A stretch of 63,790 nt of DNA, the filler included, from a bacterium (GTDB lineage: Bacteria > UBP18 > UBA7526): NCBI GenBank assembly GCA_030615855.1. It is 6 parts of 6 records of this genome, joined end to end, with 100 filler letters (N's around TTAATTAATTAA, not from the genome) between each part and the next. Parts side by side here need not be neighbours in the genome. Positions count along the whole stretch, not along the records: positions 1 to 16,507 come from JAUWYL010000024.1; positions 16,608 to 29,065 come from JAUWYL010000029.1; positions 29,166 to 42,641 come from JAUWYL010000028.1; positions 42,742 to 50,800 come from JAUWYL010000034.1; positions 50,901 to 59,751 come from JAUWYL010000033.1; positions 59,852 to 63,790 come from JAUWYL010000044.1. One strand, given 5' to 3'. Below, piece after piece: positions 1 to 63,790 of the stretch (within the stretch, counting starts at the first letter, position 1; each line of letters opens with the position of its first letter). Under the pieces are notes generated by a model. That model made no database searches, was not told the DNA's origin, and saw nothing but the letters and a program-made list of their open reading frames with translations. The position numbers and the translations under genes are program-made.

Positions 1-378
1 CCTTCCACCCCGGCAGTAGGAGTTGCCTTGGGTACGGATAGATTAATCCTGACCTTAGAAAGAGAAGGGGTTAGGCTCCCGGTTGAAGAGGGTGTAGATA
101 TCTATCTTGCTTCTCTAGGTGAGAAGGCAAGTAAGAAAGGCTTTGCCTTAGTCCAGAGATTGAGAGAGAAGAATCTAAAGGTAGAAGGAAGCTTATCTTC
201 CAAAAGTCTCAAAAGTCAGCTGAGATTAGCAAATAGATTAGGGGCGAGATACGTCCTTATCCTGGGGGAGGAAGAACTCGCCAAGAAGAGAGCCATACTT
301 AAGGAAATGACTACGGGCAAGCAGGAAGAAATAGCCTTAAAGAGAATAGTAGAAGAGATAAGCAGGAAAGTAGGATAG
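1..378 (+). CDS. hisS: Histidyl-tRNA synthetase, 3' end (partial)
   Basis: PAVGVALGTDRL motif 3 plus class IIa anticodon-binding domain (SLKSQLRLANRLGARYVLILGEEE); upstream of aspS. Confidence 0.9.
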   Translation, partial: PSTPAVGVALGTDRLILTLEREGVRLPVEEGVDIYLASLGEKASKKGFALVQRLREKNLKVEGSLSSKSLKSQLRLANRLGARYVLILGEEELAKKRAILKEMTTGKQEEIALKRIVEEISRKVG

Positions 379-539
379 TAGAAGAGTAGAAAAGTAAAGA
401 AATCAATGCAAAATGTAAAATGCAAAATTAACAATGCAAAACTGAAGTAGGGGAGTAGGTAATCGGGTTATTCGAAAAGCAAAAGACATTGTTATCTGTT
501 CAATGTTCATTGTAAACTTCTGAACGAAGTGAGGGGGAA

Positions 540-1085
540 ATGACTAAGTTATCGAAGTATCAGAAGGTAGGAATCTTTGTCGATGTCCAGAATATGTTCT
601 ACTCAGCAAAGCATCAGTATGGAGCGAAGTTAAACTTCGCAAAACTTTTAGAGTTTGCAGTCAAGGGAAGAAGACTCATAAGAGCCATTGCCTATATCGT
701 TCAGACCAAGGGCATTGATCAGGCGAAGTTCATCGATATGCTCTCACGCACGGGTTATGAGGTAAAGTCCAAGGAGCTCAAGATTCGCCCAGATGGAACG
801 GCGAAAGGAGACTGGGATATGGGCATCGCCATCGATAGTATATCGTTAGTAGATAGAATAGATACCATGGTCTTGGTCTCTGGGGATGGAGACTTTGTCG
901 ACCTGGTGAATATGCTAAAGGGAAGAGGGGTGAGGGTGGAAGTACTGTCCTTTCCCAAATCAACAGCGGATGAATTAAAGCAAGCCGCCACCCAGTTCTA
1001 TCCCATTGAGTCCCACCTCCTAATTAAAGAACGACGACAGAGTCGCCGAGTAGGAGAGTATAAAAGAAGAAGAGCAGGAAAGTGA
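540..1085 (+). CDS. NYN domain (LabA/DUF88) protein
   Basis: IFVDVQNMFY, KGDWDMGIAID, LVSGDGDF motifs. Confidence 0.9.
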   Translation: MTKLSKYQKVGIFVDVQNMFYSAKHQYGAKLNFAKLLEFAVKGRRLIRAIAYIVQTKGIDQAKFIDMLSRTGYEVKSKELKIRPDGTAKGDWDMGIAIDSISLVDRIDTMVLVSGDGDFVDLVNMLKGRGVRVEVLSFPKSTADELKQAATQFYPIESHLLIKERRQSRRVGEYKRRRAGK

Positions 1086-1181
1086 GAGAGCGACCAAGCT
1101 ATCGAGCTATCAAGCAATCGAGAACAAGAATCCAGTATCTGTGCTAATCCGTAAAAAATCTGTGATAATCTGTGGTGAAGA

Positions 1182-4156: not shown

Positions 4157-4297
4157 ATCCCGCACCTTTTATCGTATTTTGTACTTATCTTTTAAAAAGC
4201 AAAAGAAAAAGCCTTGTGAACCCCACACCTTCCTTGCACGCGGTTGGGATTTGGGGAGAAGAAGGAGCTGTGAATCATAAAAAAGGTGCGGGATGAA
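4153..4297. mobile_element. Miniature inverted-repeat element flanked by ATGAA direct repeats
   Basis: ATCCCGCACCTTTT (4157-4170) / AAAAGGTGCGGGAT (4281-4294) perfect 14-bp IR; ATGAA at 4153 and 4293. Confidence 0.65.
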
Positions 4298-6852: not shown

Positions 6853-6926
6853 AGTAACTAGTAACCAGCGAACAGTAACCAGTTTTTGTTATTACTGTTA
6901 ACTGTAAACTGTTCACTGTAAACTGC
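6853..6926. repeat. Inverted heptamer-repeat arms (CAGTAAC-type / GTTACTG-type)
   Basis: AGTAACT-AGTAACC-AGCGAAC-AGTAACC then TTACTGT-TAACTGT-AAACTGT-TCACTGT; similar at 43122-43172. Confidence 0.75.
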
Positions 6927-6944
6927 CGAACGCAGTGAGGAGAA

Positions 6945-10604: not shown

Positions 10605-10850
10605 TTAAGTAGTAAGAAAGTAGAAGAGTATCAGATTGCCAGAATATCAGATAAAGAAGGCCAGATATCAGAAAGTCAGATTGAATCTGATTTCTGAATT
10701 CTCATTCTGATACTCTGATGTTCTGATAATCTGTGATTAGACGAGACAAGCGAAGCGCATCGTCATATTCTCAAAGGTTCGCAATTATCTGTGATCTATG
10801 CAGATCTGTAGATTATCTGTGTGAATCTGTGTCTAAGGAGGTGATTAGAG

Positions 10851-11195: not shown

Positions 11196-11395
11196 ATAAA
11201 CACGGATTAGCGCGGATAACAACACGGATTACAGGATGCGCTTCGTTAGCATCCTAGAGAGCATCAAATTGATTAATACTTAATCATCAACGGCGGAGAA
11301 CAAAGTGCGCCGTTTAATATTAAGCATTGACACGGATTTAATCTGTGATCATCTGTAAAAAATCTGTGATTATCCGTGTATCAGAGGAGGTATTT

Positions 11396-11749: not shown

Positions 11750-11840
11750 GGTAGGAAAGTAAAAAAAGAAGAAGAGTAGGAAAGTAGCGATGCTATTTAC
11801 TACTTTGTTACTTTCTTACTTCCGAGCGAAGCGAGGAGAG

Positions 11841-12548: not shown

Positions 12549-12656
12549 GGCTATCCGGTTATCAGGTGATCAGGTTATCGGTGATCGGTAATAAAGGAAA
12601 CGGAGAAATGAGAAGGGTTAACCGAAACCGGTTGACCCAGGAAAGGAAGGAAGAGA

Positions 12657-13139: not shown

Positions 13140-13232
13140 ATTTTACGACCGCTTGCTTTTGAGTCAAAATCCGTGATTATCTGTGATCTGTGTGAATCTG
13201 TATTCAATCCGTGTCTTAGGAGGATTTTTTAA

Positions 13233-14531: not shown

Positions 14532-14550
14532 GAATTGAACTGTAAGTTGT

Positions 14551-14661
14551 AGGTTACGTCAAAGGGTAACGGTAACGAAGCCCGTATCGTTTAGGGGTTA
14601 CGGTTACGTAACCGAACAACGTAGCCGAAACGGGTATCCTAACCTTAACCGAGCAACTTTT
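14551..14661. repeat. Dispersed palindromic element, copy 1 of 3
   Basis: GAAGCCCGTATCG...CGAAACGGGTATC; matches 23810-23885 (same strand) and 44242-44371 (reverse). Confidence 0.8.
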
Positions 14662-14719
14662 GACTTATTAACTTGTCAACTTATTAACTTGTCAACTTAA
14701 GCAAGGAGGAATATTACGG

Positions 14720-16968: not shown

Positions 16969-16974
16969 AAAAGG

Positions 16975-17107
16975 TTTACGGTTAACGGTTTACGGTTAAC
17001 GGTTTACGGTGAACGGTAAACAGCCCCGACGGTTGTCGGGACGGGCAAATTGAATAATAATTATTCATCAGCGGGGCAAGTAAAACGCACCGCTCAACGG
17101 TAAACCC
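16975..17107. repeat. Composite GGTTTAC-heptamer element with internal hairpin modules
   Basis: near-identical to 52603-52728, shorter version at 23210-23297. Confidence 0.85.
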
Positions 17108-17130
17108 ATTACCCCAGATTGGAGTGAGAG

Positions 17131-23165: not shown

Positions 23166-23320
23166 CTCGATAGAACCGTCAAACTGTCTCACTTGGTGTT
23201 AAGGAAATATGGTTTACGGTTACGGTTTACGGTGTACGGTAAAGACCGTAAACGGTAAACAGTCCCGATAGATGTCGGGACGGGTAAACCGTAAACGATT
23301 ACTGAGACTCAGGAGGTATC

Positions 23321-23791: not shown

Positions 23792-23917
23792 TTTACGGTA
23801 AACGGTTAGGGTAACGAAGCCCGTATCGTTTAAGGGTTACGGTTACGTAACCGAAAAACGTGACCGAAACGGGCATCGTAACCGATAAACGATTAACGAA
23901 TTATTCAAGGAGGTTTT

Positions 23918-25893: not shown

Positions 25894-27870
25894 ATGAATG
25901 ATGGTTATGCTGGTAGATATCTGAGGGTTGATTTGCCGAGAGAGAAGTTCACTGTCCTGCCTACGCCCGAAGAATGGAAGAGGAAGTATCTGGGTGGAGT
26001 AGGAATGGGTGCCCGCATTATGTGGGACGAGGTGCCTCCAGAGGTCAAGCCCCTATCCCCCCAGAATAGGATCATTTTTGCTACTGGTCCCGTGAATGGA
26101 ACCCTATTTCCTCCTTCGGGAAGATATGAGGTCATCTCCAGGTCTCCCTTGACCGGCTGGTGGGCCCACGCTTCTGCTGGTGGATTCTTCGGCCCGGAGA
26201 TGAAGTATGCCGGATATGATCTCATTATTATCCAGGGGAAAGCGAAGAAACCTGTCTATTTACATATCGATAATGACTTAATTGAATTGAAGGATGCTAA
26301 GCATCTGTGGGGGAAGAACGTCATAGAGACTACTGACCAGATCATAAAGGAACTTAAAGATCCCGATGTCAAGGTGGCCTGTATTGGGCAGGCGGGTGAG
26401 AACTTGGTAAAGTATGCCTGCATTATGAGCGATTACTTCCGAGCCGCAGGGAGAACCGGATTGGGCGCTGTCTTAGGCTCTAAAAACTTAAAGGCCATTG
26501 CCATAAGGGGAACAAAGGGAATAAAGATCGCCAATAAGGAAAAGTTCAATAAATTATTGGAGGATGCCTTTAAGCGCCACTCACCAGAAGGAAGATACTG
26601 GGAGTATATTGAGAGTTTTCGCAAGTATGGAACATTCTCTTTGACTGATTGGGAGAATGCTATCGGAAGATTACCCACCAAGAACCACTGGACGGGCTAC
26701 TTTGAGAATGCTGAGGAGACCATCGGGATGGAGCCCATGAAAAAGAGGCATTATAAACGACATGCCTCCTGCTTCGGCTGCGGTATCCAGTGTAAGTATT
26801 CCTCTATCGTAAAGGAAGGGAAATATGCCGGAACAGAGTCCGAGGGCCCAGAGTATGAGACCGTAGAAGGCTTCACCTCTAACTTCTTATCTACTGATAC
26901 CAATGCCTTGATTCGGGCCAATTACCTCTGCAATATCTATGGTATGGATACCATCTCTGTTAGCCACTCTATCTCCTGGGCCTATGAGTGCTATGAACAT
27001 GGCCTCTTAACAAAGGATGATACCGATGGTAGGGAGCTAATCTGGGGTGAGGATGGGATGGATCATGTAATTGAATTATTGGAAGAGATTCCTTTTAGGA
27101 AAACCAAGTTCGCCAGTCTCCTGGCCGAAGGATCACAGGAGGCAGCGCGTAGAACAGGCAAAGGCTCTGAGGCCTATGCCATCCACGTCAATGGCTTAGA
27201 GGCCTCTGGTCAGGATGGAAGACCCCATAAGTCATTAGGTTTAACCTATGCCATCAATGTTCGGGGGGCGGACCATCTTACCTCCCTCTCCAGTCTGGAT
27301 GAGTTGGGTTATAAGGAAGAGATCAGAAGAAGGTATAAGAAGGAGACAGTCGATATCTTAGCCGAGAGATGGGATGAGAAATTAAAGGGATATCTGGTAG
27401 CGGATATGGAGGAGTTATATGCCCTCTGTGACTCTGCCCTACTCTGTAAGTATGGTGTTATGTGGCCCCCCATCTACTATCATCAGGACTTTGGGAAGAT
27501 TATCTCAACCATCACTGGCTTTACTGAGTATGAAAACCCGAAAGAACTGAATAAATTAGCCAAGAGAATCTGTCATCTCAGAAGATGCTTCAATGTCAGG
27601 CTTGGCTGGTCGAAAAAGAACGATGCTCTGCATCCCCGGTTTACTGAAGAGCCCATGCCTACCGGTCCGGCAAAGGGGCAGGTGGTTCATCTGGAGCCCA
27701 TGTTAAGGGAGTATTATCAGGCAAGAAAATATGATTGGAAGACCGGTTATCCCACCAAGAAGGAGTTGGAAGAGGTGGGATTGGAAGATGTGGCAAAGGA
27801 ACTAAAGAAAAGGAAGAAGTTAATTCCAGTATATCGAGGCAAGAAAGCCTTCCAGATCAGAAAGAAGTAA
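25894..27870 (+). CDS. AOR-family oxidoreductase large subunit
   Basis: GGFFGPEMKYAGYD, IGQAGENLV, AAGRTGLGAVLGSKNLK, CFGCGIQC, CNIYGMD, RGADH. Confidence 0.95.
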   Translation: MNDGYAGRYLRVDLPREKFTVLPTPEEWKRKYLGGVGMGARIMWDEVPPEVKPLSPQNRIIFATGPVNGTLFPPSGRYEVISRSPLTGWWAHASAGGFFGPEMKYAGYDLIIIQGKAKKPVYLHIDNDLIELKDAKHLWGKNVIETTDQIIKELKDPDVKVACIGQAGENLVKYACIMSDYFRAAGRTGLGAVLGSKNLKAIAIRGTKGIKIANKEKFNKLLEDAFKRHSPEGRYWEYIESFRKYGTFSLTDWENAIGRLPTKNHWTGYFENAEETIGMEPMKKRHYKRHASCFGCGIQCKYSSIVKEGKYAGTESEGPEYETVEGFTSNFLSTDTNALIRANYLCNIYGMDTISVSHSISWAYECYEHGLLTKDDTDGRELIWGEDGMDHVIELLEEIPFRKTKFASLLAEGSQEAARRTGKGSEAYAIHVNGLEASGQDGRPHKSLGLTYAINVRGADHLTSLSSLDELGYKEEIRRRYKKETVDILAERWDEKLKGYLVADMEELYALCDSALLCKYGVMWPPIYYHQDFGKIISTITGFTEYENPKELNKLAKRICHLRRCFNVRLGWSKKNDALHPRFTEEPMPTGPAKGQVVHLEPMLREYYQARKYDWKTGYPTKKELEEVGLEDVAKELKKRKKLIPVYRGKKAFQIRKK

Positions 27871-28146
27871 ACACGAATAAACGCGAACTGAATAGTAGAA
27901 GACGTAAGAAACATGACACGAATCAACACGAATTACGAGTAAATAAGAGAATAAGTTAATAAGTTGATACGAATTGCGAGTCACGGGTTACGAGTTAAGT
28001 GATTAAATCATAAAACCATACAACTATACAACCATCAAACCATAAAACTATTAAATTATTCAACTATCTAGCCGAACTCTGCATTCAATTATCTGTGCTC
28101 ATCTGTAATAAATCTGTGTAAATCTGTGTGCGAACGAAGTGAGCAA

Positions 28147-28599: not shown

Positions 28600-28727
28600 G
28601 GAGTTTAAAAGGATTCAAACGGATGATAACGGATGCAAACGGATAAACTATCGCAAAAAGGTCCGTCTGCATCTGTTTAAATCTGTCTGAATCTGCGTCT
28701 TGCCGAACGGAGTGAGGCTTATTTAGA

Positions 28728-29065
28728 ATGAAATTAACGAGACCATCTGATTTACAGAAAGCGAGAAAGATGATTCGTTCTCGCTACGATCCAAAGAAGA
28801 CCTGTGTTACTGTCTGCTGTGGGACAGGATGTATTGCCTCTGGTGCCCAGGGTGTGGCTGAGGCCTTTAGAAAAGATATCGATAAAAGAGGCCTGAGACC
28901 CAGGGTGAATCTCAGGATAACCGGATGCCATGGATTCTGCGAAAGGGGCCCATTGGTAGTCATCTATCCCAAGAAAATCTTTTATCAAAGAGTAAGAGTA
29001 GGGGATGTAAAGGAGATTATCTCTCAAACCATCCTTAAAGAAAAGATAATCGAACGCCTCCTCTA
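28728..29065 (+). CDS. NuoF/HydB-like subunit, N-terminal [2Fe-2S] domain (truncated)
   Basis: VCCGTGCIASGA, TGCHGFCERGPLVVIYP. Confidence 0.88.
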
Positions 29066-30813: not shown

Positions 30814-30894
30814 ATTTCATACATTATTTATCTGTGTGAATCTGTAGTTTTAATCTGTGCTAATCTGTGCTAATCTGTGGTTCAGGAGGGAAGG

Positions 30895-36116: not shown

Positions 36117-36131
36117 CACGGATAGGCACGG

Positions 36132-36518
36132 ATGGGAAAACGGATGAGCACGGATACGAAACACTTTACGTATTATTGGCTACCGCTGATTCTCTATGCG
36201 GGAGTGATATTTACCGTTTCTTCCTTTCCTCTGCCACCACCAAAGGTTGAGATTCCTTTTATAGATAAGTTCATCCATTTGGTAGAGTATGGAATATTGG
36301 GCTTTCTCTTCTATCGTGCCCTAAGAATTTCGAGGTTGGCAAGGCGAGTCTTCATTCTCGCTATTATCTTTTCTATTCTCTATGCTCTGAGCGATGAGAT
36401 TCATCAGTTTTTTGTTCCCGGAAGAAAATTCGACCTCTGGGACTTAGCAGCCGATAGTTTAGGAATCGTTTTGGTTACTTTATATCTGAAACATAAGCAG
36501 GGGTTAGCACGAAAATAA
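36132..36518 (+). CDS. VanZ family protein (start uncertain)
   Basis: DKFIHLVEYGILG, YALSDEIHQFFVPGR, DLAAD. Confidence 0.88.
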   Translation: MGKRMSTDTKHFTYYWLPLILYAGVIFTVSSFPLPPPKVEIPFIDKFIHLVEYGILGFLFYRALRISRLARRVFILAIIFSILYALSDEIHQFFVPGRKFDLWDLAADSLGIVLVTLYLKHKQGLARK

Positions 36519-39369: not shown

Positions 39370-40836
39370 GTGGAAGAATTCATTAAAGTGAGGCATGAGA
39401 AGCTCAAAAGGCTAAGAAAAGAGAAGATAGAACCCTATCCCCATAGGTATAAGATCACCTATAAGACAAGAGAAATATTGGGGAAATATAAAAAACTAAA
39501 GATCGGGGAGGAAGTAAGGGGCTCCCAGGTTTCTTTGGCAGGAAGGATTATGAGTAAGAGGGGTCATGGGAAGAGCGGATTTGCCCATATAATGGATGGC
39601 AGTGGCAAGATTCAAGTATATACCAAGTTCGATGTTGTGGGGGAAAAGAAATATGGCCTCTATAAGAAGCTCGATATCGGGGACTTCATCGGAGTTGAAG
39701 GTAGAATATTTAAGACCAAAACTGGGGAGATAACTGTCCTAGTTGAAGATTTTACCCTTTTGGCAAAGTCTCTGAGGCCCCTACCAGAGAAATGGCACGG
39801 ATTAAAAGACGTGGAAATAAGGTTCAGGCAGAGATACATTGATCTAATCATGAATCCCGAAGTCAAGGAGACCTTTCTGCGAAGATCACGGATCACGTCT
39901 TTAATAAGAAAGTTTTTAGATAAAAAGGATTTCCTGGAGATTGAGACCCCCATGATGCAGCCCATCCCCGGAGGAGCAGCCGCTACACCATTTGTTACCC
40001 ACCATAAAGCGTTGCACCGAGATCTATACCTGAGGATTGCCCCTGAACTCTACTTGAAGAGATTGATTGTGGGCGGGATGGAGAGGGTCTATGAGATAAA
40101 TAGGAACTTCAGAAATGAGGGAATCTCTACCAGGCATAATCCAGAGTTCACCATGCTCGAGTTATACCAGGCCTACGCTGATTATGAGGACTTAATGGAA
40201 TTGACAACTGAACTAATCGCCGAGATAGCCAAAGAGGTCTTAGGGACCCTGAAGATAGAGTATCAGGGAAAGAAGATAGATCTGAAGACCCCCTGGAAAA
40301 GACTTACTTTAAAAAGCGCCATAAAGAAATACACCAAACTCGATATCGATAAAACGAAGAATATTAAGAAAGAAGCGAAGAAGTTAGGGTTGAAAATTGA
40401 GGAAGACTTGGCCGATACCCAGGTGATAGATCATATCTTCAAGGAGTTTGTGGAACCCCGGCTCATCCAACCCATGTTCATCACTGACTACCCTAGAGAA
40501 TTGTCTCCCTTAGCAAAGGCGAAGAAGAATAACCCTAATTTGGCAGAGAGGTTTGAACTCTTCATTGGGACTTTGGAACTAGCCAATGCCTACTCGGAAT
40601 TAAATGACCCTATTCTCCAGAGGGAGAGATTGAAGGAGCAGCTGGCCCTAAGATGGGCGGGTTCTGAAGATGCCCATATGATGGACGAAGACTTCTTGAG
40701 GGCCCTGGAGTATGGTATGCCTCCCTGTGCGGGATTGGGAATTGGGATCGATAGATTGGTTATGCTCCTAACCGACTCTCCCTCCATTAGGGATGTTATT
40801 TTATTCCCCCATATGAAACCAGAGAAACAGCAATGA
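39370..40836 (+). CDS. lysS: Lysyl-tRNA synthetase (class II)
   Basis: LPEKWHGLKD, YLRIAPELYLKR, FRNEG, YGMPPCAGLGIGIDR. Confidence 0.98.
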   Translation: MEEFIKVRHEKLKRLRKEKIEPYPHRYKITYKTREILGKYKKLKIGEEVRGSQVSLAGRIMSKRGHGKSGFAHIMDGSGKIQVYTKFDVVGEKKYGLYKKLDIGDFIGVEGRIFKTKTGEITVLVEDFTLLAKSLRPLPEKWHGLKDVEIRFRQRYIDLIMNPEVKETFLRRSRITSLIRKFLDKKDFLEIETPMMQPIPGGAAATPFVTHHKALHRDLYLRIAPELYLKRLIVGGMERVYEINRNFRNEGISTRHNPEFTMLELYQAYADYEDLMELTTELIAEIAKEVLGTLKIEYQGKKIDLKTPWKRLTLKSAIKKYTKLDIDKTKNIKKEAKKLGLKIEEDLADTQVIDHIFKEFVEPRLIQPMFITDYPRELSPLAKAKKNNPNLAERFELFIGTLELANAYSELNDPILQRERLKEQLALRWAGSEDAHMMDEDFLRALEYGMPPCAGLGIGIDRLVMLLTDSPSIRDVILFPHMKPEKQQ

Positions 40837-41031
40837 AAAATGTAAAATGCAAAATTAGCAATGCAAAATTAAAAGTAATAACCAATCACCAAGAAACAAG
40901 ATACAAACAATACTCAATAACCAATCAGCAATAACCAAGCTGTTTGAATATTGGAATTTTGAATTTGGAATTTGTTTGGTTATTGTTTCTTGTATCTTGT
41001 AACTTGTCAACTTTTTACTTTAGGACTGAGG

Positions 41032-42252
41032 ATGCATTATCCACTTTTTATTGCTTTGAGATATTTAAAGGGAGGAAAGGGAAGCCCTTTCCTCTCAGTC
41101 ATTACTTTAATCTCTATCGGGGGAGTAACCTTAGGGGTGGCTGCTCTAATCATTACCCTATCGGTAATGAACGGTTTCCATGAGGACCTGAGGGATAAGA
41201 TTGTAGGGACCAATGCCCATATTGTCATCTTAAAAGAGGGCTCGGAGGGTTTGAGCAATTATAGGGAACTGGGAAAACGGGTGGAAGGAATGGAGCATGT
41301 CCTGACCACCTCTCCCTTTATCTTTGGCCAGGCCATGATAAGATCCTCCCAAAGTTCGCTGGGGGTTGTGATAAGGGGAATAGATATAGATAAAGAGACT
41401 GAGGTAACAGACCTCGATAAAAATATCATAAAGGGAAACTTGAAGGATTTTGGCCCAGATAGCCTCATCTTGGGTAAGGAGTTGGCCATGAGTCTGGGAG
41501 CGGATGTTGGCGAACGGGTGAGGGTCATATCCCCTAAGGGAATTGCGACGCCCATAGGCATGAAGCCCAGATTCAAGAGCTTTAAAGTGATAGGAATATT
41601 CGATACCGGAATGTATGAGTATGACTCAACCCTAGCCTATGTAACATTGGATAGCGCTCGGGAACTATTCAGAATGGGGGAAGTAGTCACCGGGCTCCAG
41701 GTGAAGATAGACGATATCTACCAGGCAAGTAAGATGGATAAAAGAATCCAGAAGGAATTAGACTATCCCTACTGGGTGAGGAACTGGATGGAACTCAATA
41801 GCAACCTCTTCGCTGCCCTAAGGATGGAGAAGATCACCATGACAGTTATTTTAGTTCTCATTATCCTGGTTGCTGCTTTCAACATCGCCAGTACCCTGAT
41901 CATGAAGGTCATCAGGAAGACGAAGGAGATCGGCATATTGAAAGCCATGGGTGCCCAACGTAAGAGTATTATGTCCATCTTCATCATGGAGGGATTGATC
42001 ATTGGTCTTATGGGAACCCTTCTGGGAACATTCATCGGCTCTTTAATCTGTTTCCTGCAGGATAAGTACCATTTCGTTAAATTACCGGGAGGGGGAGAGG
42101 TCTATTATATAAGTATCCTCCCCATCTCTATGAAGGGAGGCGATATCCTCCTTATTATCTTAGCAACTATCGGGATAAGTCTATTGGCAACCATCTATCC
42201 TGCCTGGCGGGGAGCGAGACTAGACCCAGTGGAGGCCATTCGCTACGAATAG
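41032..42252 (+). CDS. lolC: Lipoprotein-releasing ABC permease LolC/E
   Basis: IALRYL, LSVMNGF, VAAFNI, EIGILKAMG, YPAWRGARLDPVEAIRYE. Confidence 0.92.
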   Translation: MHYPLFIALRYLKGGKGSPFLSVITLISIGGVTLGVAALIITLSVMNGFHEDLRDKIVGTNAHIVILKEGSEGLSNYRELGKRVEGMEHVLTTSPFIFGQAMIRSSQSSLGVVIRGIDIDKETEVTDLDKNIIKGNLKDFGPDSLILGKELAMSLGADVGERVRVISPKGIATPIGMKPRFKSFKVIGIFDTGMYEYDSTLAYVTLDSARELFRMGEVVTGLQVKIDDIYQASKMDKRIQKELDYPYWVRNWMELNSNLFAALRMEKITMTVILVLIILVAAFNIASTLIMKVIRKTKEIGILKAMGAQRKSIMSIFIMEGLIIGLMGTLLGTFIGSLICFLQDKYHFVKLPGGGEVYYISILPISMKGGDILLIILATIGISLLATIYPAWRGARLDPVEAIRYE

Positions 42253-42520
42253 GGGAAACGGAGAATTGGAGAAACGGGGAAAGGGAGAAAGTGGGCAGGT
42301 AGGCAGCGATCGGTAAACGGTGGCCGGCTATGGAGAACAGAGATCGGTTATTAGAAAACCGAAATCAGTAAAGAGAATGGAAAACGGAAAACAGTTTTCC
42401 AATTTCTGATTTCACTGCTGTTTTCAGATTTCTGCCAACTGTTTTCAGATTTCGTTACAGTTTTTCTTAAGACGAAACGAACTGCGTAACTAAACAACGA
42501 ATAATGAGGAACAAAAAAGT

Positions 42521-43200: not shown

Positions 43201-44172
43201 ATGCTTCGTTATTTATCCCGAAGATTATTACAGATGATTCCCTTGTTAATCGGGATAACCATTATCTCCTTTGCTGTTATTCACTTAGCGCCTGGTGAGC
43301 CGACAGATCTGGTAACCGATCTCCAGCCCAAGGTCTCCGCCCAGGCAGCGGAGAGACTGAGGCATCTCTATGGATTGGATAGACCTCTTCATATCCAGTA
43401 TCTGGATTGGCTGAGGAGGCTGGTTAAGTTAGACATGGGAAGGTCCTTTCTCGATAATCGATTGGTGAGTTTAAAGATCTTAGAAAGACTTCCCATTACC
43501 ATAACCATAAACGTTTTATCTCTACTACTCATCATTATCGTTGCCCTTCCCATAGGTATCGTCTCTGCCACCCGACAGTACTCCCTATTCGATAGAGCAA
43601 GTACGCTATTCGTCTTTTTAGGCTTCGCTACTCCTACCTTCTGGCTGGCATTACTATTAATGATTCTCTTTGGGATAAAGTTAGGCTGGCTCCCCATCTC
43701 TGGCTTAAGATCCCTCTCTGCTGCTTCCTTTTCTTTCGGGGGGAGATTATTAGATATGGCCAAACACTTAATCTTACCGGTCTTTGTCTCTGCTTTTGGA
43801 GGATTGGCCAGCTTCTCAAGATATATGAGATCCAATATGCTTGAGGTCATCCATCAGGATTATGTTAGAACTGCCCGAGCAAAGGGACTCTCTGAGAGAG
43901 CAGTCATCTACAAGCACGCCCTACGCAATGCCCTTTTACCCATTGTCACTATCTTAGGGCTTTCGGTTCCGGCCTTGATTGGAGGAAGTGTAATCTTTGA
44001 ATCCATATTTGCTATCCCGGGAATGGGGAGGCTCTTCTATGAATCGGTTATGGCTCGGGATTATCCGGTAATCATGGGAGGATTGGTCATCGGAGCGATT
44101 CTAACATTATTAGGGAATTTAATCGCAGATATAACCTATGCCTATGTCGATCCCAGGATAAGATATCGGTGA
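43201..44172 (+). CDS. Peptide ABC permease (OppB/DppB)
   Basis: [35 protein letters not shown]. Confidence 0.93.
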
Positions 44173-44499
44173 ACGGTGATCAGTGGTCGGTGAACGGTGA
44201 TTGGTAGTAAATAGGAAAATACGTGAATACGTGAATACGTTAAAAGTTGCTCGGTTACGGTCAGGGTTAAGATGCCCGTTTCGTTTAGGGGTTACGTAGT
44301 TCGTCTTTAAAGACGTAACTTTTAGACGTTACCGATACGGGCTTCGTTGCCGTAACCCTTTGATGTAACCTGTATTTTGTATCCTTATTTTCTTATTTCT
44401 GAGTGTTAACGAAGAAACAAGGTTCTGCGCGTAGCGCAGGTTCTTATTTTCTTATTCACTTATTAACCTATCAACTTATTCACTTATTTTTGAGGATGA

Positions 44500-45352: not shown

Positions 45353-46315
45353 ATGTTACTCGAAGTGAAGAACCTCTCCACTTATTTTTATACAGAGGAT
45401 GGGCTATCGAGAGCAGTGGATGGGGTGGATTTTGAGATAGGAGAAAGGGAGGTCCTGGGATTGGCAGGGGAGAGTGCCTGCGGAAAGACGGTGACCGCTT
45501 TATCTATCTTGAAGCTCGTCCCTCCACCAGGCAGGATCGTAAGGGGAGAGGTCCTTTATAAAGGTAGAGATTTACTAAAATATTCTGTAGATGAGATGAG
45601 AGAGATAAGGGGGAGAGAGATATCCATGGTCTTTCAGGAGCCCACCACCTCCCTCAACCCGGTCTTCACCATTGGGGATCAGATCATAGAGACCCTAATT
45701 CTTCATCAACAATTGAAGAGAAAGGAGGCCCAGAAAAAAGCGGTCCAATTACTTAACCTCGTTAATATCCCTTCACCAGAATCGAGGATCCATGACTACC
45801 CCCATAACTTAAGTGGAGGGATGAAACAGAGGGTCATGATTGCCATGGCCCTATCCTGTAATCCTTTCCTCTTAATCGCTGATGAGCCAACTACTGCCCT
45901 GGATGTTACCATCCAAGCCCAGATTTTAGAATTACTTAAAGAATTACAGAAAAGACTCAAAATGAGCATCCTGCTCATCACCCATAACTTAGGCATCATC
46001 TCGCAGGTTTCGGATAGAGTAGCCATCATGTATGCTGGGAGGATAGTAGAGCAGGGGACGACAGAAAAGATACTTAAAAGGCCTCTTCATCCCTATACTA
46101 AGGGATTATTGGAATCCATTCCCAGAATGGAGACTACCCAGAAACGCCTGCCAACTATTGAGGGTATGGTTCCCAAGCCAATCCAGTGGCCCTCAGGGTG
46201 TAGATTCCATCCCAGATGTCCTGTGAAATTATCTATGTGCGGTGAGAAGGAGCCGGAGATGAGAGAATTTACCCCGGGCCATAAAGTAAGATGCCACTTA
46301 GTCAGTGATCGGTGA
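45353..46315 (+). CDS. Peptide ABC ATPase (OppD/DppD)
   Basis: GESACGKT, LSGGMKQR, ADEPTTALD, GCRFHPRC. Confidence 0.93.
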   Translation: MLLEVKNLSTYFYTEDGLSRAVDGVDFEIGEREVLGLAGESACGKTVTALSILKLVPPPGRIVRGEVLYKGRDLLKYSVDEMREIRGREISMVFQEPTTSLNPVFTIGDQIIETLILHQQLKRKEAQKKAVQLLNLVNIPSPESRIHDYPHNLSGGMKQRVMIAMALSCNPFLLIADEPTTALDVTIQAQILELLKELQKRLKMSILLITHNLGIISQVSDRVAIMYAGRIVEQGTTEKILKRPLHPYTKGLLESIPRMETTQKRLPTIEGMVPKPIQWPSGCRFHPRCPVKLSMCGEKEPEMREFTPGHKVRCHLVSDR

Positions 46316-46448
46316 TCGGTGGTGAAGAAAGAAAATACGAAAATACGAAAATAAGGGAAAGGAAGGTAAGGCGGAAGGGGACTTATTCACTTATTAACGT
46401 ATTCACTTATTCACTTATTAACTAATTCCAAGCGTTAGCGAGGTAGCG

Positions 46449-47399: not shown

Positions 47400-47572
47400 T
47401 TTGTGTTTCTTTAATTCGCGTTCATTCGCGTTCTCTTTATTCGTGACAATTCGTGTTTGTTTATAGCGTAATTGCCCAACAGTTCGTGTTGATTCGTGTC
47501 CTCTTAATTCGTGTTGTTTCGTGTTTGTTTATTACATTTTCGCCCACCAGTTCGTGTTGTTTCGTGTTTACC

Positions 47573-47601
47573 TTGCATTTAAAATAAAAGTATGGTATTA
47601 T
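47573..47601 (+). promoter_or_regulatory. panBC promoter
   Basis: TTGCAT-17-TATTAT with TG extension. Confidence 0.6.
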
Positions 47602-47609
47602 TAATTGTA

Positions 47610-47646
47610 CCGCTTGGATCCGGCTTTAGACGGACTGGGACGGAAG
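47610..47646 (+). ncRNA. pan RNA motif-like leader hairpin
   Basis: CCG-CTTGG-A-TCCG / CGGA-CTGGG-A-CGG stem with two bulged A, upstream of a terminator and panB. Confidence 0.6.
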
Positions 47647-47727
47647 TAATTAGTTGGTTAGATGGTTAGTTAGCTAGTTGGTTAGAAAAGTCCTAACAAA
47701 CCAGCAAACCACCCAACTATTTTAGTG

Positions 47728-47908: not shown

Positions 47909-48751
47909 ATGGAAAAGATGACAATTACTAAATTGAGGGAAATGAAAGAAAAAGGGAAGAAGATTGTGATGCTCACCTGTTACGACTATCCCACGGCCTT
48001 AATCATGAATGAGGTGGGGATCGATATTCTCTTAGTTGGTGATTCCCTGGGCATGGTCGTCTTGGGATATGAGGATACCTTGCCGGTGACTATGGAGGAT
48101 ATGATAAGGTATACCCAGGCCGTGGCAAGGGGGAATAAGAACCCTCTCCTGGTGGCGGATATGCCTTTCCTGTCTTATGAAGTTAGTAAGAATGAGGCCA
48201 TTAAGAATGCGGGAAGACTAATTAAGGAGGCCGGGGTCCAGGCGGTGAAGACCGAAGGGGGCAAGGAGATGGCGGAGATTATAAAGGCCATCGTTGATGT
48301 TAAGATCCCGGTTATGGGTCATATCGGACTTACTCCCCAATCAGTCCATAAGTTAGGGGGATTCAAGGTTCAGGGTAAAACCGCTCCCCAGGTAAAAAAA
48401 TTGATTGAGGATGCCCAGGCCTTAGAAGAGGCGGGGGTCTTCTCTATTGTATTAGAATGCGTTCCTGCTGAAGTAGCAAGGATGATTACCGAAAGGGTTA
48501 AGGTGCCTACCATTGGTATCGGCGCTGGCCCTTATTGCGATGGCCAGGTTCTGGTAACCCACGATCTATTGGGATTATTTGATAGATTCGTTCCCAAGTT
48601 TGTAAAGCAGTATGCCGATTTAAGAAAAATTCTAAGAGAAGCCTTTACAAAATTCAAGGAAGAGGTAGAAAGGGGAGAGTTTCCTTCCCGAGAACATTCC
48701 TTTAAGATAAAGGAAGAAGAACTTGCGAAAGTCAAGGATGAGAAACGGTGA
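47909..48751 (+). CDS. panB: 3-methyl-2-oxobutanoate hydroxymethyltransferase
   Basis: LVGDSLGMV, ADMPF, GHIGLTPQ, DGQVLV. Confidence 0.97.
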   Translation: MEKMTITKLREMKEKGKKIVMLTCYDYPTALIMNEVGIDILLVGDSLGMVVLGYEDTLPVTMEDMIRYTQAVARGNKNPLLVADMPFLSYEVSKNEAIKNAGRLIKEAGVQAVKTEGGKEMAEIIKAIVDVKIPVMGHIGLTPQSVHKLGGFKVQGKTAPQVKKLIEDAQALEEAGVFSIVLECVPAEVARMITERVKVPTIGIGAGPYCDGQVLVTHDLLGLFDRFVPKFVKQYADLRKILREAFTKFKEEVERGEFPSREHSFKIKEEELAKVKDEKR

Positions 48752-48923
48752 AACGGGGAATGGGTGAATCGGAGAAAGTGGGAAATTGAGAAAGTAGGAG
48801 TAAATCCCGCGGGATTTAATTTCTAATATCTAATTCCTAATTTTCAATAACCGAATAGAGAATTTTCACTGACTTGTCAACTTATTAACTTATTAACTTA
48901 TCAACTTGTTAACAGAGGTTTAA

Positions 48924-52592: not shown

Positions 52593-52729
52593 GCTAAAAA
52601 AAGTTTACGGTTAACGGTTTACGGTTTACCGTAAACGGTAAACAGCGACGAACAGAGTGAGGAGCGGGCAAATTGAATAATAGTTATTCATCAGCGGGGC
52701 AAGTAAAACGCACCGCTCAACGGTAAACG

Positions 52730-58957: not shown

Positions 58958-59030
58958 GCCCACGTAGCTCAGTTGGTAGAGCAGGGCTCTTGTAAAGCTC
59001 AGGTCGGGGGTTCGAGACCCTCCGTGGGCT
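58958..59030 (+). tRNA. tRNA-Thr(TGT), CCA not encoded
   Basis: acceptor GCCCACG/CGTGGGC, anticodon arm GGGCT-CTTGTAA-AGCTC, GGTTCGA. Confidence 0.93.
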
Positions 59031-59055
59031 TTGAGTAAAATTCATTCAAAATTTT

Positions 59056-59140
59056 GGGCGGATACCCAAGTGGTTAACGGGGGCAGACTGTAAATCTGCT
59101 GGCGATGCCTTCGGAGGTTCGAATCCTTCTCCGCCCACCA
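59056..59140 (+). tRNA. tRNA-Tyr(GTA)
   Basis: GCAGA-CTGTAAA-TCTGC, long variable arm, GGTTCGAATCC, ACCA. Confidence 0.95.
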
Positions 59141-59197
59141 TCCTTCGCCAATATGTGGTGACCCTATGAAGCAGGCTACGGATGGCAGGCCAATTTT

Positions 59198-59231
59198 GCG
59201 GGTGTAGCTCAGTGGTAGAGTCCCGGCCTTC
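59198..59231 (+). pseudogene. Orphan 5' half of a Gly-like tRNA broken in the anticodon loop
   Basis: GCGGGTGTAGCTCAGTGGTAGAGTCCCGGCCTTC followed by hairpins. Confidence 0.7.
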
Positions 59232-59322
59232 TCCCGAAAATCTCCGAGTCCGACCACCTCTAGTGGACGGGCGAGAATAGATTTTCGGGGATCCCGCTAA
59301 GGCGCGGGGGCGTAATCTGTTG

Positions 59323-59396
59323 GCGGGCGTGGTTCAGTGGTAGAACATCAGCCTTCCAAGCTGAGGACGTGAGTTCGATTCTCATCGCCCGCTCCA
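59323..59396 (+). tRNA. tRNA-Gly(TCC)
   Basis: GCGGGCG/CGCCCGC, TCAGC-CTTCCAA-GCTGA, AGTTCGATT, TCCA. Confidence 0.95.
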
Positions 59397-59457
59397 AACT
59401 GGGTCAATCGGGATCCTCGCAACTGTAATCCCAACAGAGTTGGGAACATTTGCGGGG

Positions 59458-59486
59458 TTGACAAATAGGTTTTTATCTGTTATATT
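59458..59486 (+). promoter_or_regulatory. Promoter of tRNA-Thr/tuf
   Basis: TTGACA-17-TATATT with TG extension. Confidence 0.7.
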
Positions 59487-59505
59487 ATTTTTTTACCTAT
59501 GCCAT

Positions 59506-59581
59506 GCCCATGTAGCTCAGTTGGTAGAGCACATCCTTGGTAAGGATGAGGTCAGCGGTTCGATCCCGCTCGTGGGCTCCA
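59506..59581 (+). tRNA. tRNA-Thr(GGT)
   Basis: anticodon loop TTGGTAA in CATCC/GGATG stem, GGTTCGATCC, CCA. Confidence 0.95.
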
Positions 59582-59933: not shown

Positions 59934-60743
59934 ATGAGAAATCTTAAGGTTGGGATTGTAGGCTGCGGAGCCATAGGAACAGAACTGGCTCAGGCAATAG
60001 ATAGAGAGATTAAAGACACACAGTTAGTCGCTTTAACTGATATCGATGAAGAAAAGGCAAAGAGATTAGCCTATTCTCTAAAAAGAAAACCAGAGATTCT
60101 GCCCTTAGATAGGTTAATTGAAAGGAGTGACCTCATCATTGAGGCCGCTTCAAAGGACCTCGTTTCCTCCCTGGCGAGAAAAGTAATAGAGCAGGGCAAA
60201 GATATTATGATTATGAGTGTGGGCGGTTTATTGGGGAATGAGGATATCCTTGACTTAGCAAAGAAGAAGGGCTCTAAAATATATCTCCCCTCTGGAGCAT
60301 TAGCCGGATTGGATGGTGTGAAAAGTGCCTCAATTGGGAAAATAGACTCAGTAATTTTAACGACTCGCAAGCCTCCAGAAGGATTGAAAGGTGCACCATA
60401 CATAATAAAGAATAAGATAGATTTAGATACTATAACCAAAGAGACGGTCATCTTTGAAGGGAGTGCGAATGAAGCAGTGGAGGGCTTTCCCAAGAATATC
60501 AATGTTTCTGCTGCGCTTTCTTTAGCAGGAATTGGGAAAGAGAAGACAAAGGTGAAGATTATTGCTGATCCAAACTTAAAGAAGAATATCCATGAGATTG
60601 AAGTGAAAGGGGAGTTCGGAAGATTAATCTCAAGAACAGAGAACCTTCCCTCCCCTAAAAATCTCAAGACAAGTTATCTTGCCTGTCTATCCGCCATCGC
60701 TACCTTAAAAGGAATAGTAAGTAACATAAAAGTAGGAACATAA
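59934..60743 (+). CDS. nadX: L-aspartate dehydrogenase
   Basis: GIVGCGAIG, IEAAS, PSGALAGLD, FPKNINVSA, NLKTSYLA. Confidence 0.92.
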   Translation: MRNLKVGIVGCGAIGTELAQAIDREIKDTQLVALTDIDEEKAKRLAYSLKRKPEILPLDRLIERSDLIIEAASKDLVSSLARKVIEQGKDIMIMSVGGLLGNEDILDLAKKKGSKIYLPSGALAGLDGVKSASIGKIDSVILTTRKPPEGLKGAPYIIKNKIDLDTITKETVIFEGSANEAVEGFPKNINVSAALSLAGIGKEKTKVKIIADPNLKKNIHEIEVKGEFGRLISRTENLPSPKNLKTSYLACLSAIATLKGIVSNIKVGT

Positions 60744-60781
60744 TAAAGTAAAAGAGTAAAAAAGTAGGAAAGTAAGAAAGT

Positions 60782-60805
60782 AGCCGCCTATAAAGGGCGG
60801 CTTTT
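60782..60805 (+). terminator. Intrinsic terminator after nadX
   Basis: AGCCGCC-TATAAAG-GGCGGCT-TTT. Confidence 0.65.
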
Positions 60806-61041: not shown

Positions 61042-61057
61042 ACGAAAGAGGTGTAAA

Positions 61058-61591: not shown

Positions 61592-61682
61592 AGGAACTGA
61601 GGCATATCTCATTCATTTTTTACTTATTAACTTATTCACTTGTCAACTTGTTAACTAAATGTGAGGAAGGAGGTGAGAAGAA

Positions 61683-62588
61683 GTGAAAAAGACGTTACTA
61701 ATTCTTTGTTTGGTGAGCATTATGGTTCTGGGGACTGCTGGATTAGCCTTTGCCAAGGATACAAAGTTTGGTCCTCCGATAATCAACGATGATGCTGGTA
61801 CAGTATCCAAGGGAACCCTTGAGTGGGGAACGGGCGTTGCTCAAACCTGGGACTCTAGCTTCTACACCACGAGCATCATCACTGCCTTGACCTATGGTAT
61901 CACCGACCATCTGGAGGCCTACGTCGCTCCCTGTGTGCTTAGCGCTGTCTGGGGAGACGACCTCCATAATTCGCCCGCCGATCCGCGTTATGCTGCCCTG
62001 GTTGGTGCTTATGGCAACCATGGTGCGGTTCATCAGGAATTCACTGACATCTGGGTAGGTACCAAGTATCAATTCCTGGAGGAGAAGGGCAATATCCCAG
62101 CCGTAGCTGCTAAGCTCCGGCTTAAGATTCCCGGCAAATCAGACAGCAAAAACCTGACTACTGGGGAGTTAGACGAGGATATTACCCTCTGTGCAACTAA
62201 AGGATTTGGCAAGAGCCTTGGTCCGTTTCCCAAGCTTCAGGTAGATGCGAATCTAGGCTATCGGCAGATTGGTAATCCAGACAACAGGGTCTATGCCGAT
62301 GAGGTTCGCTACGGGGCATCGGTCATGTACCCGTTCTTCTTTTCCGGGTTCTCCCTTAAGGAGGCACCATGGAAGGGATTCCTACTCGTCGGGGAATTGG
62401 TAGGAAGGACAAATAGTAGTAGAAGCACCCACATTGTTATCAACGAGAATATTTTGGATGCTTATCTTGGGATCAAGCAGTTCATAACCCCACTATTCTA
62501 TTACAAACTCGGCCTTGGTAATCGGATAAGCGATGATAGTCCTGACTACTTGGGATATTTGGGTGTAGTTTACTACTTCCACCTGTAG
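61683..62588 (+). CDS. Putative outer-membrane beta-barrel transporter (MetA-pathway/phenol-degradation-like)
   Basis: signal peptide, PIINDDAGTV, LTYGITDHLE, DIWVGTKYQF, aromatic C-terminal strand. Confidence 0.7.
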   Translation: MKKTLLILCLVSIMVLGTAGLAFAKDTKFGPPIINDDAGTVSKGTLEWGTGVAQTWDSSFYTTSIITALTYGITDHLEAYVAPCVLSAVWGDDLHNSPADPRYAALVGAYGNHGAVHQEFTDIWVGTKYQFLEEKGNIPAVAAKLRLKIPGKSDSKNLTTGELDEDITLCATKGFGKSLGPFPKLQVDANLGYRQIGNPDNRVYADEVRYGASVMYPFFFSGFSLKEAPWKGFLLVGELVGRTNSSRSTHIVINENILDAYLGIKQFITPLFYYKLGLGNRISDDSPDYLGYLGVVYYFHL

Positions 62589-62656
62589 GCTGAAAAAGAG
62601 CCTCCGATAGATCGGGGGCTCAGTCATCATTCATTCTTTCATTTAACGAGTTTAGA

Positions 62657-63613
62657 TTGGTGAAGAGAAAAAAAGAAAACCCAATAAAAGGGATAGCAAA
62701 GTTATCTCTTATCAAGTTTCTCATCTGGCTCTTGAACATTCTTCCCAGGGGATTACTCTATGGACTGGCAAGAATACTTGCCTCTATCTCCTGGGTAGTA
62801 ATGAGACCCCCTAAAAGGACGAGCCTCTTTAATCTCAAAAGAGTCTTTGGCAAAGAAAAGAGTCAGAAAGAGATTAAGAGGCTTGCCAAGGAGAATGCCT
62901 TCCATCTGGTGAAGAATGTCTGTGAACTCTTCCGGGGGATGAACCTCTCTAAAGACCAGATCGATAGGCTCTTTAAGATAAAAGGGAAAGAGAACTTAGA
63001 TAAAGCCTTAGCAAAAGGAAAGGGAATAATCGGCCTCTCTGCTCACATCGGAAACTTCATGATGATTTCTATTAAAATGAACCGGGAAGGCTATTCCTTT
63101 GGTTATATCGCCCGTGATATCTTAGGCGATAGAGTAGCTAGGTTATTGGCTGATATGAGAAGAAGGATGGGGGCCTATACCATCCCCGCCTTCCCTCCCC
63201 ATGCCTGCACCCATAGATGCATTGAGTGGCTGAGGAAGAATAGTATACTATTCTTACAGTTCGATAGGATTCCGATTAAGGGAGGAGTAGTAGTTGATTT
63301 CTTCGGCCATCCAGCAGCCACCATGCCTGGACCCATTGTATTAGCAAGAAGAACGGGAGCAGCCATCGTTCCCATGTTCATCGTCAGACAGAGAGATAAT
63401 ACACATAAGATAGTCATCGATCCTGAAATAGAACTGGAGAAGACTGGAGATAAAGAGAAGGACCTCTTAACCAATGCCCAGAAATTGACCAAGATAATAG
63501 AGAACGCTATCTTAAGATATCCTGAGGATTTCTTCTGGATCTTCGGGAGATGGATGGATCAGGTACCATATAAAAGCGAGAAACGGAGACACGGTGACCC
63601 GGAGAAACGGTGA
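62657..63613 (+). CDS. Lipid A biosynthesis (LpxL/HtrB-like) acyltransferase
   Basis: GKGIIGLSAHIGNF, VDFFGHPA, YPEDFFWIFGRW. Confidence 0.88.
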   Translation: MVKRKKENPIKGIAKLSLIKFLIWLLNILPRGLLYGLARILASISWVVMRPPKRTSLFNLKRVFGKEKSQKEIKRLAKENAFHLVKNVCELFRGMNLSKDQIDRLFKIKGKENLDKALAKGKGIIGLSAHIGNFMMISIKMNREGYSFGYIARDILGDRVARLLADMRRRMGAYTIPAFPPHACTHRCIEWLRKNSILFLQFDRIPIKGGVVVDFFGHPAATMPGPIVLARRTGAAIVPMFIVRQRDNTHKIVIDPEIELEKTGDKEKDLLTNAQKLTKIIENAILRYPEDFFWIFGRWMDQVPYKSEKRRHGDPEKR

Positions 63614-63790
63614 AAATGAGAGAGTGGGCCCCGACGAGCACGAAGCTGGGGGTCGGGATCTCCGCTTCGCTCCGAAAAGCGGGCAGGTGGAAATAAATCC
63701 TGCAGGATTTAATCTCTCCCGAAGGGATCCCTTTGGGGCAATATCCAATTTCTAATTTCCAATAACCAAATAGAGAATTTTCACTGACTT

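Follow-up and report, generated by a model that had tools for sequence, protein, structure and literature searches.

Tandem-word arrays at the gene boundaries of an uncultured UBP18 bacterium and their possible origin as cassettes of the intervening-sequence type

The intervening sequence (IVS) in helix 45 of the Coxiella burnetii 23S rRNA holds an S23p open reading frame (ORF) in the loop of a 28-bp inverted-repeat stem and, according to the passages of the source considered here, has in its 5' part GACAGAT heptamers in tandem, the number of which varies, and undergoes excision by RNase III (PMC4990558). In excerpts of a second report, arrays of another heptamer, TAACTGA, are placed immediately before start codons; the organisms concerned are marine Beggiatoaceae, cyanobacteria and Bacteroidetes (PMC4679880). 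The present analysis concerns a 63,790-nt stretch of DNA (hereafter, the window) from an uncultured bacterium (GTDB lineage UBP18; UBA7526; assembly GCA_030615855.1) in which the spacers between genes are rich in tandem arrays of short words. Specifically, we propose, with a probability of roughly 0.55, that these spacers hold armed, insertable cassettes of the IVS type, mostly gene-less, that are remodelled and turned over at gene boundaries. Such a cassette would enclose its cargo between two complementary arms, each a tandem array of 7-, 8- or 10-nt words, the cargo being a gene of family PF05635 (the 23S rRNA intervening-sequence protein, a four-helix bundle) at approximately 8-10 places in the genome, a three-hairpin core at approximately 16, and nothing in most. 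To our knowledge, both the function of PF05635 proteins and rRNA IVSs and their means of spread have lacked an explanation since about 1990.

The window is made up of six contigs (C9, C10, C12, C13, C15 and C17), joined by Ns, of a single 1.375-Mb metagenome-assembled genome (MAG) of 45 contigs, designated G000 and 93.6% complete. Five relatives of the same family, G001 to G005, were included for comparison, the six family genomes being 53-94% complete, and the runs from which the DNA derives are sediment metagenomes. A simple ORF caller returned 1,320 genes in G000, where 964 of 1,001 gene junctions are co-directional and nearly every contig has its genes on a single strand (243/252 on the plus strand in C30, 1/122 in C35). 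All six window contigs are plus-strand contigs, and every window feature described below is on the plus strand. Arrays of period 6-24 called with Tandem Repeats Finder (TRF) cover 15.5% of intergenic bases versus 1.5% of coding bases, and arrays of period 6-12 are present in 27/36 co-directional spacers of at least 60 nt in the window contigs and in 405/693 such spacers genome-wide. At least 14 nt of array is found in 431 of the genome's 727 spacers of at least 60 nt, compared with 31-51 in ten dinucleotide shuffles, and array-covered bases number 23,287 as opposed to 696-1,204. The first-pass annotation of the window, which held that most spacers longer than about 60 nt contain arrays of 7-10-nt words, is thus upheld by a frequency well above that of shuffled sequence, and the words that it listed are all present where it placed them, positions 11821 and 47570 being array ends instead. 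An assembly artefact was ruled out, since the same arrays are present in MAGs obtained independently and also in contigs from other runs.

The commonest periods are 7 (300 rows), 8 (213) and 10 (140), while 9 and 11 are rare; the 696 arrays resolve into 390 canonical units, the commonest of which accounts for 16 arrays. Since no one word dominates among the 390 units, the idea that the words are DNA-uptake sequences was rejected. Total TRF coverage at score 30 was tried as a lineage marker and did not discriminate (outgroups 0.4-6.3%); when counted at score 40 and for periods 7, 8 and 10, arrays amount to 5-19 nt/kb in the family (0 in G003) and to about 1 nt/kb in most outgroups. As a side observation, loci from Herpetosiphonaceae/Chloroflexaceae MAGs (L030, L031, L033 and L040), which are unrelated outgroups, reach 12.8 nt/kb of period 7, 8 and 10 arrays, a density like that of the family.

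The proposed kinship with IVSs is drawn from PF05635 genes elsewhere in the genome. A six-frame search with the family's hidden Markov model (HMM) gave ten matches in G000, one with a stop, on C2, C6, C7, C26, C30, C35, C44 and C45; G001 to G005 gave 2, 10, 4 (degenerate), 9 and 8, respectively, and 9/25 outgroup genomes were also matched. Complementary tandem-word arms surround all seven of the G000 genes with enough flank to be assessed (duplex z from -1.8 to -5.1), and copies from outgroup phyla are likewise armed (G016, z -5.7; G012, z -7.4; G015, z -5.9). The same six-frame HMM search found no PF05635 match in the window contigs, and so the remark in the first-pass annotation, that similar arms flank four-helix-bundle genes that are not themselves in the window, proved accurate. 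One gene-bearing cassette, C30:13654-14145, ties the two sets of elements together: both its left arm (86% identity over 56 nt, the figure for 14556-14651) and its right arm (79-90%; 90% over 29 nt for 14556-14651) are matched by the gene-less window cassettes at 14556-14651 and 23795-23883, and a copy of ACGTAA stands on either side of the missing gene. The cassette at 14556..14651 has 19 matches of at least 60 nt in G000, counting both strands of what is a near-palindrome.

Word usage extends this correspondence. Among 18 sampled PF05635 copies, 7/8 of the previously listed word families recur as an arm of some copy, and 146/631 gene-less arrays have a unit in common with the sampled arms compared with 62-76 in controls. 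Additionally, the GGTGATC/ATCGGTA array that follows a stop codon at 12553..12586 uses the word of the upstream arm of a PF05635 gene in G004, and the orphan ACTTATTA/ACTTGTCA array before the RBS (ribosome-binding site) at 14654..14699 that of the downstream arm of a PF05635 gene in G002.

Comparison with relatives indicates that the same gene boundary can be found in several states. The 36 junctions of C9, C10 and C12 were compared with those of relatives, 34 of them being comparable, with a junction termed empty at 15 nt or less (mostly overlapping genes) and filled at 60 nt or more. Both states occur across the genomes at 8/34 junctions, and thus the filled/empty pairs that the mobile-element proposal called for do exist among aligned orthologous spacers. 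At junction 23791-23918, where the window holds the gene-less cassette 23795..23883 and therefore arms only, G002 has arms and a 139-aa ORF scoring 68.8 bits on PF05635, G003 has arms and a pseudogene, and G001 is empty with an ATGA overlap; this empty state would fit a deletion between GGGAG of the upstream gene and AGGAGG of the cassette. At junction 14531-14720 five different spacers are found in six genomes, four of them cassettes and that of G003 a plain 40 nt. Similarly, junction 28599-28728 is an ATGA overlap in G001, G003 and G005, while G000 and G002 have like flanks around unrelated interiors; the window cassette there, at 28617..28717, is composed of an ACGGAT arm, an ATCTGT arm and a 3' module (28703-28717). 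The AATGCAA array with nested complementary arms at 40832..41007 faces a junction of 5-8 nt in G001 and G003 and other cassettes in G002 and G005. The AGTAGAAA-type purine-rich array and AATGCAA array at 338..441, called by TRF and beginning at the stop of the upstream gene (378), are near-identical in G002 and replaced in G005 and G001, and the spacer at 1088..1174, with a GCTATCGA array followed by an ATCYGTG array of period 10 before the aspS start, is missing in G001 and differs in array copy number in G002 and G005. G000/G002 spacer identity is bimodal, at 0.70 or more in 10/18 pairs and at 0.53 or less in 8/18.

These junctions also indicate how cassettes come and go. Cassettes are gained at stop/start junctions, often NTGA overlaps and often with duplication of the old junction: a second copy of 4-24 nt brackets the insert, the stop being retained in the upstream copy, and the RBS and start in the downstream one. 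Cassettes are also lost, through deletions that join short repeats, and may exchange their interiors while the flanks stay conserved. Window cassettes have 5-26 matches of at least 60 nt each in G000 and match non-orthologous contigs of the five relatives at 80-98% identity, neighbouring genes being 77-97% identical to those of the relatives, mostly 86-92%. The stacked cassettes at 10607..10840 (an AGTAGAA array, an ATCAGA/TCTGAT hairpin and an orphan ATCTGTG array before the RBS) have 26 such matches in G000 as well as matches on many non-orthologous contigs of relatives. A second stack, at 27868..28129, comprises ACACGAAT, AATAAGTT and AAACCATA arrays and then ATCTGTG before the start; its 3' part is common to G002 and G004, its 5' part is replaced, and the G003 spacer is 15 nt. 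The stacking and nesting of arms described previously can accordingly be seen at both sites, and in relatives also.

Smaller changes are found at other junctions. At 7658-7676, a 9-nt tandem duplication of a TTGA stop/start junction lengthens the downstream gene by three codons, and the duplication, at 7667, is missing in contigs of all four other metagenome runs compared. Contigs of other metagenomes additionally have a replaced spacer at 14531-14720 and an extra 40-nt purine-rich array at 12546-12552. Separately, a 160-aa gene at 12657-13139, with its flanking arrays (12572-13176), is represented by 23 letters in two other metagenome runs, and the gene was not found in the syntenic regions examined of G003-G005. 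In G005 (C11, L021), the junction orthologous to 9914-9924 contains three tandem 58-nt units; every unit has a hairpin, repeats the RBS, start and stop from the former 11-nt gene overlap, and can be read as a mini-ORF.

Within spacers, arrays pair and are polarised, both to a lesser degree than first described. A complementary stretch is present in the same spacer for 262/639 arrays (41%) versus 28 in the control, so that the pairing of arms is real while about six in ten arrays are orphans. When 538 of 581 spacers were folded, each against its shuffles, a composite helix of at least 20 pairs was found in 161/538, and in a subset such helices occurred in 40/120 real and 9/120 shuffled spacers. 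The purine content of arrays declines along the spacer (Spearman -0.40, p 8e-29), and of the 349 spacers whose longest helix has at least 14 pairs, 175 have a purine-rich 5' arm, 93 a pyrimidine-rich one and 81 an arm that is neither (175 versus 93, binomial p 6e-7). This bias bears out the direction of the claimed polarity, purine-rich arm first, as a tendency weaker than claimed and not as a rule. The positions assigned to the two arms hold for a minority of spacers: the first array lies within 10 nt of the stop in 140/405 spacers (median 22) and the last ends within 25 nt of the start in 148/405 (median 40), figures that do not sustain the word "usually" for a purine arm right after the stop or a pyrimidine arm just before the RBS. 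Minority-strand spacers number 13, of which 12 are on C3 and C5, where genes run in both directions; the one usable case, on C30, is insufficient for telling an effect of transcription from one of replication.

One explanation of these labile arrays is neutral slippage in a lineage without mismatch repair, whereby words would expand in place and arms arise by template switching, with nothing moving and nothing selected. No match to MutS (PF00488) or MutL (PF01119) was found in any of the six family genomes (53-94% complete), and NucS gave a marginal, partial match of 24.4 bits. In favour of slippage are this lack of MutS and MutL, the 390 units among 696 arrays, array copy numbers that vary between relatives, duplications of 9-24 nt at junctions (metagenome contigs show one to be polymorphic) and the majority of orphans. 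However, it sits poorly with long non-repetitive cores at 5-26 places that reach 98% identity on non-orthologous contigs where genes stand at 86-92%, with the dominance of periods 7, 8 and 10 over 9 and 11, with spacer identities that are bimodal and not graded between G000 and G002, with the enclosure of one specific gene family by arms across phyla, and with G003, which lacks the same repair genes yet has no array in 17 kb. Slippage as the whole explanation therefore appears quite unlikely to us.

The folds themselves raise the question of which nucleic acid the hairpins act in. The mean minimum free energy of the 538 spacers is -36.6 kcal/mol in sense versus -29.3 for shuffles, and -34.4 in antisense versus -26.4; G-U pairs make up 11.2% of pairs in sense folds and 9.5% in antisense, which does not discriminate between RNA and DNA. 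Excess stability alike on both strands would be expected were the hairpins to act in single-stranded DNA (ssDNA), where they might be signals for replication or recombination, or else be acted on by an unknown ssDNA-hairpin recombinase, with polarity following the fork. Genes run in one direction over whole contigs, so that sense equals one replication strand. C(GNA)G triloops form very stable DNA mini-hairpins, and such hairpins are enriched in the spacers, with 48 in sense and 26 in antisense compared with 5-14 in shuffles. The 3' module CYGARCGNAGYGAGG includes such a C(GNA)G triloop mini-hairpin, followed by GAGG; the module has 62 hits in the genome, of which 31 have A-T and 26 have G-C at the paired positions, a double change that leaves the stem intact. 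On the other hand, these variants of the module may be just two lineages, in which case the double change may be a single event. Moreover, the module stands behind arms of varied families and mostly at Shine-Dalgarno distance from starts, a placement that points to RNA, and no Y1 (IS200/RAYT) transposase was found in G000; taken as a whole, an ssDNA role is very unlikely.

Many cassettes carry a ready-made RBS module. In the window it occurs at 520..534, as the mini-hairpin plus Shine-Dalgarno directly 5' of the start at 540; at 6926-6940, where it closes a cassette (6853..6940) with a CAGTAAC arm and a complementary ACTGTAA arm; and at 11822-11836, behind the AGTAGGAA arm and complementary TTACTTTC arm of the cassette at 11750..11836. 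For a candidate 5' module around GGAATTTGAATAA, a search allowing two mismatches was too noisy to yield a count.

Cargo other than a gene is represented by a three-hairpin core. A conserved core of about 75 nt between a GGTTTAC and a GTAAAC arm is found at 16973..17125, with further GGTTTAC-armed cassettes at 23211..23300 and, again with three hairpins, at 52603..52728. The genome has 16 copies of the core, 15 of them co-oriented with genes, and its stems show compensatory changes; it could be a structured RNA. The cassette at 11196..11383 is similar in layout, with a CACGGAT arm, a three-hairpin core (11221-11339) and an ATCYGTG array; over 97 nt this core has 98% identity with the opposite strand of a G001 spacer that is not its orthologue, a conservation exceeding that of neighbouring genes. 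Searches of Rfam with both cores gave chance-level hits only, and at the gathering threshold the whole window yielded four tRNAs and nothing else, these tRNAs forming a cluster at 58958-59578.

An alternative in which pairing would be secondary is that the words are putative sites for trans-acting proteins, either PF05635 pentamers with branch-specific words or proteins of the S1/Csp/Csr type, that set the translation or stability of the neighbouring gene. Several words in tandem context are strongly strand-specific (ATCTGT 82 versus 16 for its complement, GAAAGT 34 versus 3, AAAATG 25 versus 4), as might be expected of such sites by start codons, and orphan arrays end at the RBS: beside 14654..14699, examples are the ATCYGTG array at 13168..13201, the period-10 ATCTGTG array at 30828..30879 and the ACTTATTA array at 61622..61656. 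Similarly, a post-transcriptional regulator has been proposed for TAACTGA arrays just upstream of starts, in the passages of that report available to us (PMC4679880). Nevertheless, the downstream genes are unrelated housekeeping genes, and hundreds of word families are set against about ten PF05635 genes; in addition, close relatives may use different words at one junction, an observation not easily reconciled with a conserved regulon. We consider protein sites an improbable primary explanation.

The insertable-cassette reading has, for its part, to accommodate several findings that weigh against it. Firstly, excess stability over shuffles is -7.4 kcal/mol in sense and -7.9 in antisense, and because it is alike on both strands nothing singles out RNA over DNA. 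Secondly, gene direction coincides with the presumed direction of replication, and therefore polarity is not assignable to transcription. Thirdly, 377/639 arrays are without a partner in their spacer, and 485/631 gene-less arrays have no unit in common with the sampled PF05635 arms. Fourthly, as PF05635 matches in G000 number only ten, the gene-less cassettes are without detectable gene remnants, and loss of a gene between two ACGTAA copies has the same appearance as insertion with a 6-bp duplication; gain and loss would therefore be indistinguishable at this site by sequence, and "scar" is one of two readings. Fifthly, G003 lacks MutS and MutL too, yet has no array in 17 kb and degenerate PF05635 copies, and so missing repair alone is insufficient. 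Finally, PF01797 (Y1 transposase, IS200/RAYT) has no match in G000 at 93.6% completeness, by which the Y1 transposase was ruled out as the mover of cassettes. The earlier suggestion that the arms are empty scars of a repeat-flanked mobile class consequently survives in part: insertable cassettes, armed PF05635 genes and empty and filled junctions speak for it, whereas most arrays are orphans and a scar is not the sole reading of a gene-less cassette.

Under the cassette reading, arms would grow, shrink and diversify by whole-unit slippage, aided by the MutS/MutL-less lineage, and polarity would arise because cassettes take the orientation of the host operon, which places a purine-rich, Shine-Dalgarno-like arm 5' of the cargo gene. 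Within long co-directional transcripts, pairing of the arms may give stems of at least 20 pairs, which RNase III, for which a gene is present (C27:38256-38639, 125 bits), might cut, or which might stabilise flanking mRNA, by analogy with the excision of rRNA IVSs. If the analogy were carried further, gene-less arrays might be cis sites of a genome-wide punctuation of very long transcripts from co-directional genes, in which each PF05635 pentamer would read its own word and RNase III would excise the paired arms as hundreds of "messenger intervening sequences"; cassettes would then carry stop, RBS and start modules because gene boundaries must be re-created on landing. This extension is tentative, and we hold it to be rather unlikely.

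Further arrays of the window add to the range of words and arrangements. Purine-rich arrays are found at 42247..42291 (GGAGAAAC), at 60728..60783 (AAAGTAGG, after a stop codon) and at 63578..63615 (GAGAAACG), and a CACGGAT array lies at a stop codon at 36118..36161. Several families share a single spacer at 44167..44488 (GGTGAAC/GGTGATC, AATACGTG and ACTTATTA); GTGATCG, GAAAATAC and ACTTATTC arrays are found at 46305..46428; ATTCGTGT arrays with a higher-order period of 68 nt accompany a TTAGTTGG array at 47414..47686; and purine-rich GAAACGGT and GAAAGTGG arrays precede TAATTTC and AACTTATT arrays at 48742..48913. Elsewhere in the genome, a multi-copy element in which a GGTATCGGAATTTGAATAA-type hairpin comes first and a G-rich segment next was observed at seven or more places (C7, C18, C28, C30, C35 and C45).

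One spacer occupant is of another kind. At 4157..4292, a gene-less 136-nt element with terminal inverted repeats CCCGCACCTTTT lies within an ATGA stop/start overlap; ATGA is found on both sides of it in G000 and is uninterrupted in G001, and the element has 5 matches of at least 60 nt in G000, itself included. Its termini are the same as those of a GIY-YIG mini-element at C35:39292-39489, which resembles it also in the (A)TGA target and differs in carrying a gene. A miniature inverted-repeat transposable element has terminal inverted repeats like those of a copy that carries the gene, target bases that are repeated, and a site that some relative has unoccupied, all of which apply here; 4157-4292 is a gene-less copy of the GIY-YIG mini-element. 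Since GIY-YIG genes are bounded by terminal inverted repeats of 13-14 nt, not by tandem arms, this is a class separate from the tandem arrays.

Small gene-less intergenic repeats that form hairpins inside operons are familiar from REP/BIME-REPIN (repetitive extragenic palindromes and their assemblies), Correia, RUP and BOX elements and the mycobacterial interspersed repetitive units (MIRUs), the last of which point in the direction of transcription, their ends overlapping the stop and start of adjacent genes. The junction of three 58-nt units in G005 resembles MIRUs; stop/start-overlapping units of this kind, 40-100 nt in length, were seen there, at the junction orthologous to 9914-9924, and not in the window. 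In comparison with REP/REPIN systems, the PF01797 RAYT/Y1 gene was not found in G000, and in place of a single fixed palindrome the arms are tandem 7-10-nt words of many unrelated families. No publication tying PF05635 cassettes to genome-wide gene-less arrays was found, subscription journals and supplements lying outside the search. Hundreds of armed cassettes in a 1.4-Mb genome, together with relatives in which one and the same junction may be empty, armed or gene-bearing, allow gain, loss and the choice of target to be measured directly. The data also connect the intergenic heptamer arrays, hitherto unexplained, of cyanobacteria and giant sulfur bacteria with a concrete class of element, and, were the stems indeed RNase III sites, a new way of organising operon expression would be at hand.

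Of those heptamer arrays, the short tandemly repeated (STRR)/TAACTGA repeats are, in the passages of the report drawn on here, likewise almost confined to spacers and placed "forward" before starts; related strains differ by indels in 7-nt steps, and further heptamers are present within the same spacers (PMC4679880). They differ in that the reports centre on one word per genome, whereas none dominates here, and on direct repeats: BOGUAY has 169 direct sets and one inverted repeat (PMC4679880), as opposed to a complementary arm for 41% of arrays in G000. The same passages draw no link to PF05635, and neither "four helix" nor "intervening sequence" appears in that paper (PMC4679880). The 23S IVSs of Coxiella, Leptospira and others are similar in that a PF05635/S23p gene lies in the loop of a long stem, as in the armed PF05635 cassettes described here. 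In the portion of the Coxiella source used, the heptamer of the 5' arm is GACAGAT, to be compared with CACAGAT/CACGGAT here, its number varies between strains, and a purine-rich, Shine-Dalgarno-like stretch lies upstream of the gene, as it does here (PMC4990558). Complementary termini in a long stem are likewise present (262/639 arrays; helices of at least 20 pairs in 161/538 spacers), and a PF05635 ORF in the loop, absent from the window, is found in 7/7 assessable G000 copies and in G002 at the junction orthologous to 23791-23918. The 23S IVS, however, sits in helix 25 or 45 of the rRNA, whereas the window cassettes all lie between protein-coding ORFs; and the cassettes of this genome number hundreds per 1.4 Mb, are nearly all gene-less, and use hundreds of words, with periods of 8 and 10 besides 7.

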